Sequence record: NC_048064.1
Origin: Escherichia phage LL11
Strand: one strand, 5' to 3'
DNA: 45,185 bases
Shown: positions 36,250 through 43,891 of the stretch, in pieces
Numbering within the stretch: the first letter of the stretch is position 1
How the letters are laid out: every line of letters starts with the position of its first letter
Program-made: the position numbers and the translations under genes
The notes under the pieces: generated by a model
Told to the model about the DNA's origin: nothing
What the model saw: the letters and a program-made list of their open reading frames with translations, nothing else
Database searches by the model: none

Positions 36250-36532
36250 ACATGCAGCTACAGAGGATGAGGTTGGCATTCTGCATGGTGCTATTACCAA
36301 AATCTTCAATAAGAAAGCACAGGCAATACTGGACACTATAGAAGAAGACCCTGATGCAGCATTACATTTAGTGTCTGGTAAGGATATTGGTGCGATGTGT
36401 AAGTGGGTTCTTGATAACGGCATTACCGCCACACCTGCTGCACAGCAGGAAGAGTCCAAGTTATCTAAGCGCCTCAAGGCTATCAGAGAGGCATCCAGTG
36501 GTAAGATAATTCAATTCACTAAGGAGGGTTGA
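36233..36532 (+). CDS. terminase small subunit (gp18-like)
   Basis: GTG 36233 preceded by GGAGGGAG; about 99 aa; immediately upstream of the large terminase gene; no ATG available near the 5' end. Confidence 0.6.
   Translation: MSVHNKHAATEDEVGILHGAITKIFNKKAQAILDTIEEDPDAALHLVSGKDIGAMCKWVLDNGITATPAAQQEESKLSKRLKAIREASSGKIIQFTKEG
36324..36346 (+). promoter_or_regulatory. phage RNAP promoter inside the small terminase gene
   Basis: CAATACTGGACACTATAGAAGAA; positions -13 to +6 match consensus. Confidence 0.5.
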
Positions 36533-38430
36533 TGGCTAAGGCAAGAGAATCACAAGCAGAGGCTCTTGCCAGATGGGAGATGCTACAGGAGTTACAGCAG
36601 ACCTTTCCGTACACATCGGAAGGTTTGCTTCTCTTTGCAGACACAGTTATTCATAACTTGATTGCAGGCAACCCTCATCTGATTCGTATGCAGGCTGATA
36701 TCTTGAAGTTCCTATTCTACGGACACAAGTACCGCCTCATCGAAGCGCCTCGTGGTATCGCTAAGACAACACTATCAGCAATCTATACGGTATTCCGTAT
36801 TATTCATGAACCGCATAAGCGTATCATGGTTGTGTCCCAAAACGCCAAGCGAGCAGAGGAAATCGCAGGTTGGGTAGTTAAAATCTTCCGTGGCTTAGAC
36901 TTTCTTGAGTTTATGCTGCCGGATATCTACGCTGGGGACCGTGCATCCGTTAAGGCGTTTGAGATTCATTACACCCTACGTGGTAGTGATAAGTCTCCTT
37001 CTGTATCCTGTTACTCAATCGAAGCAGGTATGCAGGGTGCTCGTGCTGATATTATTCTAGCGGATGACGTAGAGTCGATGCAGAATGCTCGTACGGCAGC
37101 GGGCCGTGCCTTGCTTGAGGAACTGACTAAGGAGTTTGAATCTATCAACCAGTTTGGGGATATCATTTACCTTGGTACACCTCAGAACGTAAACTCTATC
37201 TACAACAACCTACCTGCTCGTGGTTACTCTGTTCGTATCTGGACTGCGCGTTACCCTTCAGTAGAGCAAGAGCAATGTTATGGCGACTTCCTTGCACCTA
37301 TGATTGTTCAAGATATGAAGGACAACCCAGCACTTCGCTCAGGGTACGGGTTGGATGGTAATAGTGGTGCACCTTGTGCCCCTGAAATGTATGATGATGA
37401 AGTCCTGATTGAGAAGGAAATCTCTCAGGGTGCTGCTAAGTTCCAGCTTCAGTTCATGCTTAACACTCGCATGATGGATGCTGACAGATACCCATTACGC
37501 CTGAACAATCTAATCTTCACCTCGTTTGGTACAGAGGAAGTCCCTGTGATGCCTACGTGGAGTAATGATTCCATAAACATCATTGGTGATGCACCTAAGT
37601 ATGGTAACAAGCCTACGGATTTCATGTACAGACCTGTAGCTCGCCCATACGAATGGGGTGCTGTCTCCCGCAAGATTATGTATATCGACCCTGCGGGTGG
37701 TGGTAAGAACGGAGATGAGACGGGTGTAGCCATCGTATTCCTGCACGGCACATTCATTTATGTGTATAAGTGCTTTGGTGTACCTGGCGGATACCGAGAG
37801 TCGTCCCTGAATCGCATTGTGCAGGCCGCAAAGCAGGCTGGTGTTAAAGAGGTATTCATTGAGAAGAACTTTGGTCATGGCGCGTTTGAGGCGGTAATTA
37901 AGCCGTACTTTGAACGAGAGTGGCCTGTAACTCTGGAAGAGGATTACGCCACCGGACAGAAAGAGTTGCGTATCATTGAGACGCTGGAGCCGCTCATGGC
38001 AGCCCATAGGCTTATCTTCAATGCAGAGATGGTGAAGTCAGACTTTGAGTCGGTACAGCACTATCCGCTTGAACTACGCATGTCCTACAGTCTTTTCAAT
38101 CAAATGTCGAACATAACGATTGAGAAGAACAGCCTCCGGCACGATGACCGCCTAGACGCCCTGTATGGCGCTATACGGCAATTAACTTCTCAGATAGACT
38201 ATGACGAGGTTACTCGAATTAATCGCCTCAGAGCGCAGGAGATGCGTGATTATATACAGGCGATGAATACACCTAGGCTTCGTCGGGCCATGCTGTACGG
38301 TGATTATGGTGATGAGCGAAGAACAACTAACACCTCTCTAGCGATGCAGCAGAGGGTTTACGGGCAGGACTACCGAAATAAATCGGCAAGCAGAAATACA
38401 CTTTCTGCAAGGATTTCAAGGACTTATTAA
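36532..38430 (+). CDS. terminase large subunit (gp19-like)
   Basis: 632 aa; ATPase N-terminal domain with Walker A-like APRGIAKT and nuclease C-terminal domain; AAGGAGG RBS. Confidence 0.93.
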   Translation: MAKARESQAEALARWEMLQELQQTFPYTSEGLLLFADTVIHNLIAGNPHLIRMQADILKFLFYGHKYRLIEAPRGIAKTTLSAIYTVFRIIHEPHKRIMVVSQNAKRAEEIAGWVVKIFRGLDFLEFMLPDIYAGDRASVKAFEIHYTLRGSDKSPSVSCYSIEAGMQGARADIILADDVESMQNARTAAGRALLEELTKEFESINQFGDIIYLGTPQNVNSIYNNLPARGYSVRIWTARYPSVEQEQCYGDFLAPMIVQDMKDNPALRSGYGLDGNSGAPCAPEMYDDEVLIEKEISQGAAKFQLQFMLNTRMMDADRYPLRLNNLIFTSFGTEEVPVMPTWSNDSINIIGDAPKYGNKPTDFMYRPVARPYEWGAVSRKIMYIDPAGGGKNGDETGVAIVFLHGTFIYVYKCFGVPGGYRESSLNRIVQAAKQAGVKEVFIEKNFGHGAFEAVIKPYFEREWPVTLEEDYATGQKELRIIETLEPLMAAHRLIFNAEMVKSDFESVQHYPLELRMSYSLFNQMSNITIEKNSLRHDDRLDALYGAIRQLTSQIDYDEVTRINRLRAQEMRDYIQAMNTPRLRRAMLYGDYGDERRTTNTSLAMQQRVYGQDYRNKSASRNTLSARISRTY

Positions 38431-38451
38431 TTACTGGACACTATAGAAGGA
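38429..38451 (+). promoter_or_regulatory. phage RNAP promoter overlapping the terminase stop
   Basis: AATTACTGGACACTATAGAAGGA. Confidence 0.75.
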
Positions 38452-38523
38452 AGGCCCAGATAATAAGAGAAAATAATAGGTAATATATAGGTTAACCTAG
38501 GTTATATAGGTATGCCTTAGTAT

Positions 38524-38543
38524 GGGTGTACTCCTGTACACCC
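38524..38543 (+). other. perfect hairpin GGGTGTAC-TCCT-GTACACCC in late leader
   Basis: 8-bp perfect stem with 4-nt loop, downstream of an AT-rich stretch that shares AGGTTATATAGGT with the origin-like region at 6042-6054. Confidence 0.4.
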
Positions 38544-38587
38544 TATTCCTTACTTCCTTACTATATTTACATAATAGGAGAGAGACA

Positions 38588-38866
38588 ATGGCTAATGATT
38601 ATAGTAGTCAACCATTAACAGGTAAGTCTAAGAGAAAGCAGGTACAACCTGTAAGTGAAGAACTAATGCTTCCGGTAATCCCAAAAGAGGAAGCTAGTAA
38701 GAAAATCAATGTTATTAATGATGCCACCAAATCAGGTAAACAGAAAGGGGCCATGGTGTGCCTTGAAGTGGAAGGTGGTGTATTGAAGATTGCTATCGCG
38801 GTTGATGGCAAAGAAGATTCAGAGTGGAAGTTAGTAACAGTGGAAACCCCTGTTACCCCAGTTTAA
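38588..38866 (+). CDS. hypothetical late protein, paralog A (92 aa)
   Basis: ATG 38588 with AGGAGAGAG RBS; shares the block SGKQKGAMV-LE and a C-terminal ...VTP... with the next ORF. Confidence 0.55.
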   Translation: MANDYSSQPLTGKSKRKQVQPVSEELMLPVIPKEEASKKINVINDATKSGKQKGAMVCLEVEGGVLKIAIAVDGKEDSEWKLVTVETPVTPV

Positions 38867-38883
38867 GAGAAGGAGGAGATTAC

Positions 38884-39171
38884 ATGGCTAAATATGGTGA
38901 AGGTTCTGTTACTGGTCAGGCTTTTCGAGTAAAAGCAGTACAAACTATTGCAACGGCAATCCCGATGCCTGTTGTTAAAGAAGCAGACCTTAAGAGAAAA
39001 GATCACCCTATCAACATCAAACACCTGTCAGGTAAGCAGAAAGGTGCAATGGTTGCTCTTGAGAAAGATGACACAACCATGCATATTGCTGTTGCACGTG
39101 GCAGTGAACCCACAGACTCATGGGATGTAACTGGTATGGAAGAGGCCGCTGTTACTCCAGCAGGGGAATAA
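38884..39171 (+). CDS. hypothetical late protein, paralog B (95 aa)
   Basis: ATG 38884 with AAGGAGGAG RBS; tandem paralog of 38588-38866. Confidence 0.55.
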   Translation: MAKYGEGSVTGQAFRVKAVQTIATAIPMPVVKEADLKRKDHPINIKHLSGKQKGAMVALEKDDTTMHIAVARGSEPTDSWDVTGMEEAAVTPAGE

Positions 39172-39173
39172 TA

Positions 39174-39518
39174 ATGCTTAATAAATACTTCAAGCGTAAA
39201 GAGTTTGCTTGCCGTTGTGGGTGCGGTACATCTACTGTTGATGCTGAATTACTACAGGTAGTCACAGATGTGCGTGAGCACTTTGGTTCTCCTGTAGTTA
39301 TCACATCGGGACATCGCTGTATTAAGCACAATGCCAATGTAGGTGGAGCTAAGAACTCCATGCATCTTACTGGTAAGGCTGCTGACATTAAAGTGTCTGG
39401 CATATTACCTTCTGAAGTGCATAAGTATCTTACTAGCAAATACCAAGGCAAGTATGGTATCGGTAAGTATAACTCCTTCACTCACATCGATGTACGGGAT
39501 GGTTGTGCGCGATGGTAA
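39174..39518 (+). CDS. peptidase M15-type zinc peptidase (putative endolysin)
   Basis: 114 aa; SGHRC...N, GGAKNSMHLTGKAADI and HID blocks match the zinc ligands of M15/VanY-like cell-wall peptidases; N-terminal CxCGCG motif. Confidence 0.75.
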   Translation: MLNKYFKRKEFACRCGCGTSTVDAELLQVVTDVREHFGSPVVITSGHRCIKHNANVGGAKNSMHLTGKAADIKVSGILPSEVHKYLTSKYQGKYGIGKYNSFTHIDVRDGCARW

Positions 39519-40092: not shown

Positions 40093-40115
40093 ATTTACTG
40101 GACACTATAGAAGAG
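40093..40115 (+). promoter_or_regulatory. phage RNAP promoter for the tailspike genes (exact consensus)
   Basis: ATTTACTGGACACTATAGAAGAG followed by leader hairpin GCGCCGTTC-TTTT-GAGCGGC. Confidence 0.8.
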
Positions 40116-40194
40116 GTAAGATAGCGCCGTTCTTTTGAGCGGCCTATTACTAGCCAATCTTCATAGGGAGGGTTGGAAAGTAATAGGAGATAGC

Positions 40195-42093
40195 ATGGCT
40201 AAATTAACCAAACCTAATACTGAAGGAATCTTGCATAAAGGACAATCTTTGTATGAGTACCTTGATGCGAGAGTTTTAACATCAAAGCCGTTTGGTGCTG
40301 TAGGTGACGCCACTACTGATGATACTGTGGTTATAGCTGATTCATTAAACTCTCAGAAAGCTGTCACAGTCTCAGACGGTGTATTCTCTAGCTCTGGTAT
40401 TAATAGTAATTACTGTAACTTAGACGGCAGGGGTAGTGGCGTGCTAAGTCACCGTTCAAGTACAGGTAACTACTTAGTATTTAACAATCTACGTGCAGGT
40501 CGCTTAAGTAATATTACGGTAGAAAGTAATAAGGCGACTGATACAACTCAGGGACAGCAGGTCTCCCTTGCTGGTGGAAGTGATGTTACTGTAAGTGACG
40601 TTAACTTCTCAAACGTTAAAGGTACTGGTTTCAGTTTAATCGCATACCCTAATGATGCGCCACCGGATGGACTTATGATTAAAGGCATTCGAGGTAGCTA
40701 TTCCGGCTATGCTACTAATAAGGCAGCCGGATGCGTACTTGCTGACTCCTCAGTTAACTCCCTCATAGATAACGTCATTGCTAAGAACTACCCTCAGTTC
40801 GGAGCAGTAGAGTTGAAAGGTACAGCCAGTTACAACATAGTCAGTAATGTTATAGGGGCAGATTGCCAGCATGTAACTTACAACGGCACTGTAGGGTCAA
40901 TAGCTCCCTCTAATAACCTTATCAATGGGGTAGTGGCTAATAATCCTAAGTATGCAGCGGTTGTTGCAGGCAAAGGTAGTACGAACTTAATCTCAGACGT
41001 GCTCGTAGATTACTCAACTTCTGATGCGAGGCAGGCTCATGGTGTTACCGTAGAAGGGTCTGATAACGTCATAAATAATGTGCTTATGTCAGGGTGTGAT
41101 GGTACTAACTCTTTAGGACAAGGGCAGACTGCTATAATTGCACGCTTTATAGGTACAGCTAATAACAACTATGCGTCTGTATTTCCTAGCTACAGTGCTA
41201 CAGGTGTTATTACTTTCGAATCCGGCTCTACCCGTAACTTCGTAGAGGTAAAGCACCCGGGCAGGAGAAACGACCTTCTCAGCTCTGCTAGTACTATTGA
41301 CGGTGCAGCTACTATTGACGGCACTAATAATAGTAACGTAGTGCACGCACCTGCATTAGGGCAGTACATAGGTAGTATGTCAGGTAGGTTCGAATGGCGG
41401 ATTAAGTCCATGTCACTGCCTTCAGGCGTTCTTACTTCTGCTGATAAGTACAGAATGCTTGGGGATGGTGCTGTGTCATTAGCTGTAGGTGGAGGCACTT
41501 CTTCTCAAGTTCGCCTATTTACTTCTGATGGTACTTCTCGGACAGTGTCCCTCACCAACGGTAACGTGCGTCTTTCTACCAGTAGCACAGGCTATTTGCA
41601 GTTAGGTGCTGATGCAATGACCCCAGATAGTACTGGTACATACGCCTTAGGTTCCGCCAGTCGAGCATGGTCTGGCGGTTTTACTCAAGCAGCATTCACT
41701 GTTACCTCAGATGCTCGGTGTAAAACAGAACCTCTTACTATCTCAGATGCCTTACTGGATGCTTGGTCTGAAGTTGACTTTGTGCAGTTTCAGTATTTGG
41801 ATCGTGTTGAGGAGAAGGGTGCAGACTCAGCTAGATGGCACTTCGGTATCATCGCCCAGCGAGCTAAGGAGGCCTTCGAACGTCACGGTATAGATGCACA
41901 TCGCTATGGCTTCTTGTGCTTCGACAGTTGGGATGATGTATACGAGGAAGATGCCAATGGCTCTCGTAAACTGATTACACCAGCAGGTTCCCGCTACGGT
42001 ATTCGTTACGAGGAAGCACTGATATTAGAGGCTGCGTTGATGCGGCGGACTGTTAAGCGTATGCAGGAAGCACTAGCTTCCATGCCTAAGTAA
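40195..42093 (+). CDS. tailspike 1: beta-helix depolymerase with C-terminal intramolecular chaperone (peptidase S74-type) domain
   Basis: 632 aa from ATG 40195 (AGGAGA RBS); Ser/Thr/Gly/Asn-rich repetitive beta-helix middle; C-terminus SDARCK ... ARWHFGIIAQRAKEAFERHGIDAHRYGFLCFDSWDD matches the autoproteolytic chaperone module of endosialidase/K5-lyase-type tailspikes. Confidence 0.85.
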   Translation: MAKLTKPNTEGILHKGQSLYEYLDARVLTSKPFGAVGDATTDDTVVIADSLNSQKAVTVSDGVFSSSGINSNYCNLDGRGSGVLSHRSSTGNYLVFNNLRAGRLSNITVESNKATDTTQGQQVSLAGGSDVTVSDVNFSNVKGTGFSLIAYPNDAPPDGLMIKGIRGSYSGYATNKAAGCVLADSSVNSLIDNVIAKNYPQFGAVELKGTASYNIVSNVIGADCQHVTYNGTVGSIAPSNNLINGVVANNPKYAAVVAGKGSTNLISDVLVDYSTSDARQAHGVTVEGSDNVINNVLMSGCDGTNSLGQGQTAIIARFIGTANNNYASVFPSYSATGVITFESGSTRNFVEVKHPGRRNDLLSSASTIDGAATIDGTNNSNVVHAPALGQYIGSMSGRFEWRIKSMSLPSGVLTSADKYRMLGDGAVSLAVGGGTSSQVRLFTSDGTSRTVSLTNGNVRLSTSSTGYLQLGADAMTPDSTGTYALGSASRAWSGGFTQAAFTVTSDARCKTEPLTISDALLDAWSEVDFVQFQYLDRVEEKGADSARWHFGIIAQRAKEAFERHGIDAHRYGFLCFDSWDDVYEEDANGSRKLITPAGSRYGIRYEEALILEAALMRRTVKRMQEALASMPK

Positions 42094-42178: not shown

Positions 42179-43891
42179 ATGCTTCAAAGATTAAGTGCTT
42201 ACTTGGTGAAGTACAAGAGTAAACTAACAGGTACTATTGAGCGCCTGCTATCTGATAAACTATCGGATACAATAGATGTTGCGGATTTTGGAGTTAATCC
42301 CTCTTCTAATGACAACAGGCGAGCCCTTCAAGCTGCATTCAATGCGGTCAGATTGCTAGGCGGTGGTACTGTATCAGTCACTAAAGCTGGCGAATATAAA
42401 CTCAGTGGCACTGTTGAGATATTTGCTAATACACACTTCAAGGTTGCTAAAGGTGTAACATTTGTACGTGACTACGAAACAGGAGATACGCTATTCAGAT
42501 TATCACAAGGGCAAGCTAGTAATGTAACAGTCAGTGGAGGTGTCTATGAAGGCAATGGTCACACTAAAGGGGATACACCTTTTGTAGTATTTGCATCTAC
42601 TAGTAATAATGATTTGAAGTTTGAAGGCATAACAGTTAACAATGTAGTGGACTACCACGCCATAGATTTAGCAGATTGGAACAACGTAGTTATTCGTGAT
42701 TGTAAATTCCTAGGGTTTAAGAATACAGGCAGTCGTAACTTCTCAGAGGCTATACAGTTAGACCCAGGTCTTATTACAGTTGGTCACTATGTACAGTCAA
42801 GCGGTATGCTGGTGGAGAATTGCTATGCTGGTCCAAACCCAGAATCCGGGTTTGGGGGTTATGGTGCACTAATCGGAAATCACGCCTCAGCTTATGGTGT
42901 ACAGGACAACAATATCCGTATCTTGAATTGCACTACAGATGGTGCTCTCTTTGCAGGTGTACGTGTATTTAACTGGAAAAACTGGACAGTACGTGGTTGC
43001 ACCTTTAGAAACTCTAATGCAAGGGGTGTTCATGTTACACCTGTCTCCTCTCAAACTAAACCGCAAGGGACTCGACAAGGTAGTGTTGTAGATTGTACTT
43101 TTGATGGCGTAAGAACACCAGTGCTAATTGCTGCACCATCTTGGCCTTTTACCGATATTAGTGACATTTGGCATGACCATATTGAAATTTCTAATAATAC
43201 TATGATCCTCACAGAGGATGTATCCTATGGTGTAGATGCAAGGTGGTGTAAGAATTTAATTGTAAAAGGTAATACAGGCTCTGGTGGCTTAGGGTTAATC
43301 GGTTTACGCTTTGGGACAAAATACCACATCGAAGGTAATACTTGGGAAAACGGAAGAGGTAGTGGGATTTGGTTAGGTGAGTCTGATGCTACTACATTCA
43401 TTGGTACTGGTTTATCAGGAGAAGGTATACTTAGTCGTAATATCTTCTCTAAATTAGGGCAATATGGTATTCATGTAAACTGCAAGGCTAGCGGTCTAGT
43501 GGTTAAAGCTAATAATATGAAGGAAGTATCTACCGCTGAAGCAGGTAGACACTTCATTAGTATAGACACAGGAGCTAACAACATCCTAGTAGAAGGTAAT
43601 ATTGGAGTAGATGGAGAGAGCCTTAACAAGCCAAGCCTTGGTATTCGTGTTACTTCTTCTTGCTCCAATATTAAACTAATTGGCAATGATTGCTATGGTA
43701 CGCAAGCACCTCAGAATAACCAAGGGGTCGGTTCTAGTACGGTGATTGTCTATGGACTAAATGGCAATCCTACAACTTTAGGTGTAGGTGCACCTGTCGG
43801 TTCTTTGGCAACGGATATTAATGGGTCTGGTGGTAGTACATTGTACATTAAAGAATCTGGTACATCTGCTCAAGGTTGGGTTGCAAAGTAG
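42179..43891 (+). CDS. tailspike 2: second beta-helix (pectate-lyase-fold-like) receptor-binding protein
   Basis: 570 aa; AAAAGGAGG RBS; repetitive Gly/Asn/Val/Thr-rich sequence with Asn ladders typical of right-handed beta-helix depolymerases; no C-terminal chaperone module. Confidence 0.8.
   Translation: MLQRLSAYLVKYKSKLTGTIERLLSDKLSDTIDVADFGVNPSSNDNRRALQAAFNAVRLLGGGTVSVTKAGEYKLSGTVEIFANTHFKVAKGVTFVRDYETGDTLFRLSQGQASNVTVSGGVYEGNGHTKGDTPFVVFASTSNNDLKFEGITVNNVVDYHAIDLADWNNVVIRDCKFLGFKNTGSRNFSEAIQLDPGLITVGHYVQSSGMLVENCYAGPNPESGFGGYGALIGNHASAYGVQDNNIRILNCTTDGALFAGVRVFNWKNWTVRGCTFRNSNARGVHVTPVSSQTKPQGTRQGSVVDCTFDGVRTPVLIAAPSWPFTDISDIWHDHIEISNNTMILTEDVSYGVDARWCKNLIVKGNTGSGGLGLIGLRFGTKYHIEGNTWENGRGSGIWLGESDATTFIGTGLSGEGILSRNIFSKLGQYGIHVNCKASGLVVKANNMKEVSTAEAGRHFISIDTGANNILVEGNIGVDGESLNKPSLGIRVTSSCSNIKLIGNDCYGTQAPQNNQGVGSSTVIVYGLNGNPTTLGVGAPVGSLATDINGSGGSTLYIKESGTSAQGWVAK

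Follow-up and report, generated by a model that had tools for sequence, protein, structure and literature searches.

The small late proteins gpD of phage lambda and Dec of phage L act as trimers on the capsid surface, whereas T5 pb10 and T4 Hoc couple a capsid anchor to an outward Ig-like domain. In lambda gpD the N-terminal arm becomes ordered only on binding (PMC7602432, and textbook accounts). Pectobacterium phage PhiM1, a member of the Autographiviridae, carries two related decoration proteins, alpha-claw (gp44) and alpha-paw (gp43), which occupy different capsid sites, one bare and one with an extra arm (PMC11440229). Likewise, the T7-like Vibrio phage Peru-2 bears an abundant capsid decoration protein of ~12 kDa, P2_50, described as Ig-like in fold, with seven strands plus a C-terminal helix, and as forming pentamers on the pentons (bioRxiv 10.64898/2026.06.25.734500). 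Closest to the genes analyzed here are gp45, gp46 and gp47 of the SP6-group Klebsiella phage Kp7, members of a known but poorly characterized family; all three are reported from mass spectrometry of gel bands from purified virions, and are listed together with gp32 as minor capsid proteins (bioRxiv 10.1101/2024.05.19.594906).

Here, we examine a tandem gene pair, ORF A and ORF B, from Escherichia phage LL11 (NC_048064.1; the whole stretch of 45,185 nucleotides is called the window). By sequence and synteny the pair belongs to the Kp7 gp45/gp46 family, and we lean towards the reading that its products are bare anchors, each one subunit of a trimeric unit that decorates the capsid surface.

The first-pass annotation of this DNA had placed two small ORFs of roughly 93 aa at 38588-39171, coordinates that proved exact for ORFs of 92 and 95 aa. 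The pair and its surroundings comprise the following features:

36532-38430, plus strand: large terminase subunit gene, directly 5' of the pair (from the ORF list and the K1-5 annotation of the matching gene).

38430-38452, plus strand: phage RNA-polymerase promoter of the SP6/K1-5 type; ATTACTGGACACTATAGAAGG at 38430-38450 matches the repeated phage promoter.

38524-38543, plus strand: GC-rich hairpin GGGTGTAC-TCCT-GTACACCC, found in a terminator-like scan and present in the predicted leader fold; its T-run is weak.

38576-38580, plus strand: Shine-Dalgarno AGGAG of ORF A, 7 nt before the ATG, read from the sequence.

38588-38866, plus strand: ORF A, with ATG at 38588 and TAA at 38864-38866; 92 aa, 9.9 kDa, pI 6.3; a single putative anchor domain.

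38870-38876, plus strand: Shine-Dalgarno AAGGAGG of ORF B, 7 nt before the ATG, read from the sequence.

38884-39171, plus strand: ORF B, with ATG at 38884 and TAA at 39169-39171; 95 aa, 10.1 kDa, pI 6.3.

39174-39518, plus strand: M15 peptidase endolysin gene, directly 3' of ORF B (Pfam Peptidase_M15_3, E 6e-34; PHROG endolysin, E 3.5e-45).

The window is a Vectrevirus genome, and the 800 bases around the pair are 95-97% identical to other genomes of this group of K1-5-like coliphages (SP6 group). The counterparts of ORF A and ORF B in the K1-5 record are genes 41 and 42, which lie between the large terminase subunit gene and the endolysin gene and are followed further on by holin, spanin and two tailspike genes.

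The promoter core, the 12-mer ACACTATAGAAG at 38438-38449, occurs in eight exact copies in the window, all on the plus strand, and the flanks of this copy resemble those of the others, with a close match to the copy upstream of the major capsid gene. It drives both genes of the pair, with the lysis genes probably included; by analogy with the known SP6 promoter, transcription would start at the G at 38446. The strong late promoter and the strong ribosome-binding site for each gene that had been claimed at first reading are both there, as a consensus phage-polymerase promoter ahead of both ORFs and the two Shine-Dalgarno sequences listed above. The resulting 142-nt leader folds overall no better than shuffled sequence (z -0.15), and we rejected the idea of an unusually structured leader RNA on that ground. 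Within it, positions 38480-38543 hold a near-palindromic AT-rich stretch (GGTTAACCTAGGTTATATAGG) and then the GC-rich hairpin, and this hairpin region could be an RNase III-type RNA-processing or stabilizing element. At the other end of the pair, the endolysin ATG (39174) lies 2 nt past the ORF B stop, and its Shine-Dalgarno sequence (GGGG) is weak; this spacing and weak signal suggest that endolysin translation is coupled to ORF B. We also considered a frameshift fusing ORF A to ORF B and rejected it: frame B is open from 38806, yet no slippery site of the X XXY YYZ type occurs in the 3' end of ORF A.

ORF A and ORF B are 35% identical over 89 residues (BLASTP E 4e-14), and profiles of their ortholog sets align with a probability of 99.5% (hhalign E 1e-22), so that the paralogy noted at first reading, together with its SGKQKGAMV.LE block, is borne out. 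The two proteins have in common SGKQKGAMV(C/A)LE, a TG...R.K arm at the N terminus and VTP(V/A) at the C terminus, and both match phrog_2725 (E 8e-38 for ORF A and 5e-43 for ORF B). An alignment of 69 sequences drawn from both ortholog sets shows no variation at the N-terminal T-G, at a proline around residue 29, at S-G-K-Q within the SGKQKGAMV block, at two alanines or at a tryptophan around residue 80, and next to none at R15, K17, N44 and the C-terminal T-P. Each protein is closer to its Kp7 ortholog (ORF A to gp45, 45% identity, E 6e-23; ORF B to gp46, 47% identity, E 1e-18; BLASTP) than to its tandem neighbor, so the A/B split predates the divergence of Vectrevirus and Kp7, in keeping with the old tandem duplication, expressed late, that had been proposed. 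A six-frame profile scan found the domain in ORF A and ORF B only, with no third copy in the window.

Many database records name these proteins acetyl-CoA acetyltransferases (thiolases), and what speaks for this is the label itself, as found on SP6 gene 43 (AY288927), in the RefSeq K1-5 record and in the PHROG 2725 description. ORF A and ORF B match no Pfam family at E up to 1 and no NCBIfam model meaningfully, and PDB searches with them returned no thiolase. Thiolases are roughly 390 aa long and need cysteines for catalysis; the two proteins, at 92-95 aa, are a quarter of that size, and ORF B has no cysteine. Lacking a domain match and wrong in size and residues, the enzyme identity is refuted, and we give it virtually no credence. 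The label looks like a propagated annotation error, probably originating with SP6 gene 43 in AY288927. A plexin match to ORF A in the PDB search (E 0.08) was noise, and the record of phage VEc3 calls the ORF A ortholog a 'Sema domain-containing protein', a label that probably stems from such a chance plexin match. The initial description of genes at this position as uncharacterized is only partly right: the widely copied enzyme name is wrong, but one virion proteomics report on the orthologs exists.

The orthologs come from a phage whose particle is represented in the PDB. The major capsid protein of the window matches 7Y3T (E 6e-181) and its tailspike adapter matches 7Y22, which are the capsid and tail entries of Kp7 (ON148527). 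In the Kp7 genome (GenBank ON148527) three tandem genes fill the terminase-endolysin slot, encoding gp45 (88 aa), gp46 (88 aa) and gp47 (178 aa); the record names the first two 'minor capsid protein' and the third 'minor capsid protein with Ig-domain'. Within gp47, the N-terminal half represents a third paralog at greater distance (E 6e-7), and the C-terminal half is an Ig-like domain (Pfam Ig_3, E 3e-7) with hits to solved chains that bear the name 'Decoration protein' (5lxk, E 3e-16; 8zvi, E 6e-17), which we take to be T5 pb10. LL11 and Kp7 thus share the family, the slot between large terminase and endolysin genes, the subfamily Molineuxvirinae and near sizes (88 aa versus 92/95 aa). They differ in that Kp7 has the third paralog with its Ig-like C-terminal domain whereas the window has two bare copies, and the virion detection comes from Kp7, whose proteins are 45-47% identical to the LL11 pair. 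No PDB sequence homolog was found for ORF A, ORF B, the A1 profile or the three-repeat profile, 7Y3T and 7Y22 included, and the placement of the Kp7 proteins on the capsid therefore follows the depositors' naming and an unpublished structure.

To place the pair in its wider family, we built a profile from both paralogs and ran it on 1.84 billion representative proteins, which returned 226 relatives, and re-scanned the domain architecture of the best 150 of these (cluster representatives). The family proved widespread, with the domain occurring across T7-like phages. Single-domain proteins account for 90 of the best 150, and long proteins, mostly of 256-302 aa with two or three detected repeats, for another 42; a few of the 150 combine one or three domains with a C-terminal extension. 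All three repeats were detected in 25 of the 42 long proteins and four repeats in none. P0317 (794 aa, eight matched stretches), a repeated Ig-like bacterial protein, failed the domain re-scan and was treated as a false positive. Profiles of the repeat positions R1, R2 and R3 score 81-91 bits at their own position versus 45-59 bits elsewhere; as each repeat keeps its own conserved identity, the triplication is, judged by these profiles, old. ORF A and ORF B match R1, R2 and R3 about equally, which gives no basis for pairing either of them with a particular repeat.

The slot after the terminase gene is common to the window, K1-5, Kp7, Premi, phiEa100, K13PH07C1L and metagenomic contigs. Three-repeat genes, whose products of ~270 aa hold exactly three copies of the domain, likewise lie directly after the large terminase gene, in T7-like contigs where a phage RNA polymerase is encoded as well. 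Some contigs hold a pair of them, of which one is bare and the other is extended by a beta-rich C-terminal domain of ~120 aa. These metagenomic loci are at 10001-10876 in L006, 7857-8708 in L008, 8755-9594 and 10001-11170 in L023, and 540-1391 and 1404-2627 in L024; one scan of viral contigs found no three-repeat loci.

Extensions of other kinds occur as well. In P0275 and P0341, the latter being Rem54 of Ralstonia phage Reminis, the domain is joined to an Sf6 tail-needle knob (PF16532, E 2e-30 and 5e-43). Two proteins at the ORF B position are also extended, by 140 aa in Erwinia phage phiEa100 and by 350 aa in an SP6-like contig (L010). Part of the latter extension (protein at 471-1787) resembles tail-fiber and C1q-like sequence by eye, and the contig has near-identical lysis genes. 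An additional gene of 214 aa (1774-2418) follows the extended protein there; it has no family match, and its product is possibly a chaperone or partner. The picture that recurs is of a conserved N-terminal anchor, which may form assemblies of three and may bear a variable domain facing outward; a bare unit is frequently found beside a payload-bearing one.

AlphaFold2 folded one three-repeat member into a compact three-domain body (pLDDT 85, pTM 0.79), while the single domain from the window is predicted, at moderate confidence (pLDDT 70), to be a small beta domain whose conserved N-terminal arm is disordered. The Sf6 knob domain is trimeric in Sf6, and we counted the knob fusion, the three-repeat fusions with their pTM of 0.79 and the three Kp7 genes as indirect points for a trimer. 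Searches for a solved structure with a similar fold, decoration proteins included, found none. Pfam and the alignment show an anchor domain only in ORF A and ORF B, with no Ig-like domain, and the two proteins match neither Pfam PF03906 (Phage_T7_tail) nor a solved N-terminal domain of a fiber or tailspike. Against viral models, Foldseek gave weak resemblances that put the domain at the N-terminal end of proteins labeled tail fiber, pectate lyase and SGNH esterase.

These fusions and fold resemblances also bear on where in the particle the proteins sit. The knob fusions and the weak resemblances count against decoration to the extent that they point equally to tail-fiber-type anchors, and ORF A and ORF B could be tail or neck proteins, trimeric fiber-anchor stubs docking at the adaptor, nozzle or tailspike-adapter region and, for example, filling unused sites. 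The domain precedes not only the knob in P0275 and P0341 but a fiber-like C-terminal sequence in P0324, and the Foldseek placement at the start of fiber- and enzyme-named proteins fits the same idea. However, the Kp7 depositors named tail parts precisely and yet called gp45-47 capsid proteins, and the Kp7 tail entry 7Y22 models no homolog. Moreover, the tailspikes of this phage group are without the domain, of which the window has no other copy to offer. We regard a tail or neck position as the main rival reading, though an unlikely one.

Capsid decoration remains our preferred reading, and the most likely one given the orthologs detected in virions, the anchor-plus-payload architecture, the recurring three, the late expression signals, and the solubility of the proteins with no enzyme match. 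We infer the capsid rather than tail location, the trimeric state and the function from this combination. ORF A and ORF B would be paralogous late structural proteins of ~10 kDa on the outside of the particle, minor capsid (decoration) proteins each consisting of one copy of a small, mostly beta domain that acts as an anchor. Three anchor domains, supplied by three chains or by three repeats in one chain, would pack into one compact unit, with the conserved N-terminal arm (TG...R.K) and the SGKQKGA loop serving assembly and docking. In relatives the anchor would carry a distal domain, be it Ig-like, an Sf6-type knob or an uncharacterized extension. Because both LL11 proteins appear to be bare anchors, their likely roles would be to stabilize the capsid or to fill defined surface sites, possibly of two different kinds. 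The trimers would be A3 and B3 or mixed ones, and surface adhesion is an alternative to stabilization as their function. A unit built of three different domains does not map directly onto LL11, which has two genes and no third copy in the window.

The location of the pair, just ahead of the genes for endolysin, holin and spanin within one transcription unit, would also suit non-structural late proteins (lysis-timing regulators, tailspike assembly chaperones or anti-defense factors) that co-purify with particles. Regulation of the adjacent lysis genes was one of the functions guessed at first, alongside minor virion or decoration proteins. ORF A and ORF B encode ~10-kDa proteins, soluble and close to neutral (GRAVY -0.33 and -0.34), and a hydropathy scan in steps of 19-residue spans found no convincing membrane segment in either. 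The most hydrophobic span, in ORF A (1.64, around GAMVCLEVEGGVLKIAIAV), has charged residues inside and is predicted to form beta strands. These properties argue against a holin or antiholin role. In addition, the Reminis member lies apart from the lysis genes, beside a large gene of unknown function, and three-repeat homologs follow the terminase gene with no lysis gene among their Pfam-annotated neighbors. The reports of the Kp7 orthologs from gel bands of purified virions, and fusions to Ig-like and knob domains that are typical of exposed structural proteins, likewise speak against a non-structural role, which we consider quite improbable. The guess of a lysis regulator is therefore not sustained, while that of a minor virion or decoration protein gains from the recovery of Kp7 gp45-47 from purified virions and from relatives fused to Ig-like, Sf6-knob and uncharacterized C-terminal extensions.

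One observation on sequence evolution could fit a non-structural arms-race protein as well as an exposed structural one. Summed over seven close Vectrevirus genomes (the window and the six loci L001 and L018-L022), dN/dS is 0.06 for the C-terminal part of the terminase, 0.16 for the endolysin and 0.31 for ORF B, versus 1.06 for ORF A, a value that comes from very small counts (mean dS 0.026 over 92 codons). Given such counts, the ratio near 1 in ORF A is only a hint, be it of relaxed constraint, of diversifying selection on an exposed protein or of noise. Over longer distances both ORF A and ORF B are clearly conserved, with dN/dS roughly 0.2-0.3 and dS saturated.

Set beside the described decoration proteins, the LL11 pair resembles lambda gpD and phage L Dec in being small and late and, by our reading, trimeric, and its conserved N-terminal arm, predicted to be disordered in the free monomer, recalls that of gpD; there is similarity to neither protein in fold or sequence. 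T5 pb10 and T4 Hoc follow the same logic as Kp7 gp47, whose Ig part is absent from the LL11 pair. The PhiM1 proteins parallel the bare and payload-bearing units seen in relatives of the LL11 family, but they are helical dimers at two-fold axes, whereas the LL11 domain is predicted to be mostly beta and points to threes. Peru-2 P2_50, compared by its description, sets the precedent of a T7-like phage with a small protein that decorates its capsid, and homology to it is unlikely.

A bolder extension of the decoration reading is that these proteins belong to an undescribed modular surface-display system across T7-like (Autographiviridae) phages. Such a system would use a new small beta fold in threes, as three chains or as a single-chain pseudo-trimer, on which phages would mount interchangeable binding domains (Ig-like, Sf6 knob and others) at the particle surface; A and B would be two separate kinds of bare unit, each with its own sites, and diversifying selection would act on A. 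We offer this tentatively, as possible rather than probable.

While no current view of phage biology is overturned, two outcomes are useful, a corrected annotation and a family-wide pattern of three domains and of anchor plus payload. The correction affects many of the 182 phage records with the family, which carry the name 'acetyl-CoA acetyltransferase', and K1-5 genes 41 and 42, which have had no assignment since the sequencing of that genome, gain a testable structural role. The variation between three repeats, three genes and two genes is a natural experiment in the evolution of decoration units. K1-5-like phages are used in therapy and engineering, and a small, probably dispensable anchor that takes C-terminal payloads would be a ready-made display site.

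Downstream of the lysis genes, the window has two tailspike-sized ORFs, at 40135-42093 (652 aa) and 42179-43891 (570 aa), each behind its own intergenic region, with a promoter core at 40102. In K1-5 the second tailspike gene is much longer (at least 2436 nt, ~811 aa) than the second of these ORFs, and for this reason the second host specificity of LL11 probably differs from that of K1-5.
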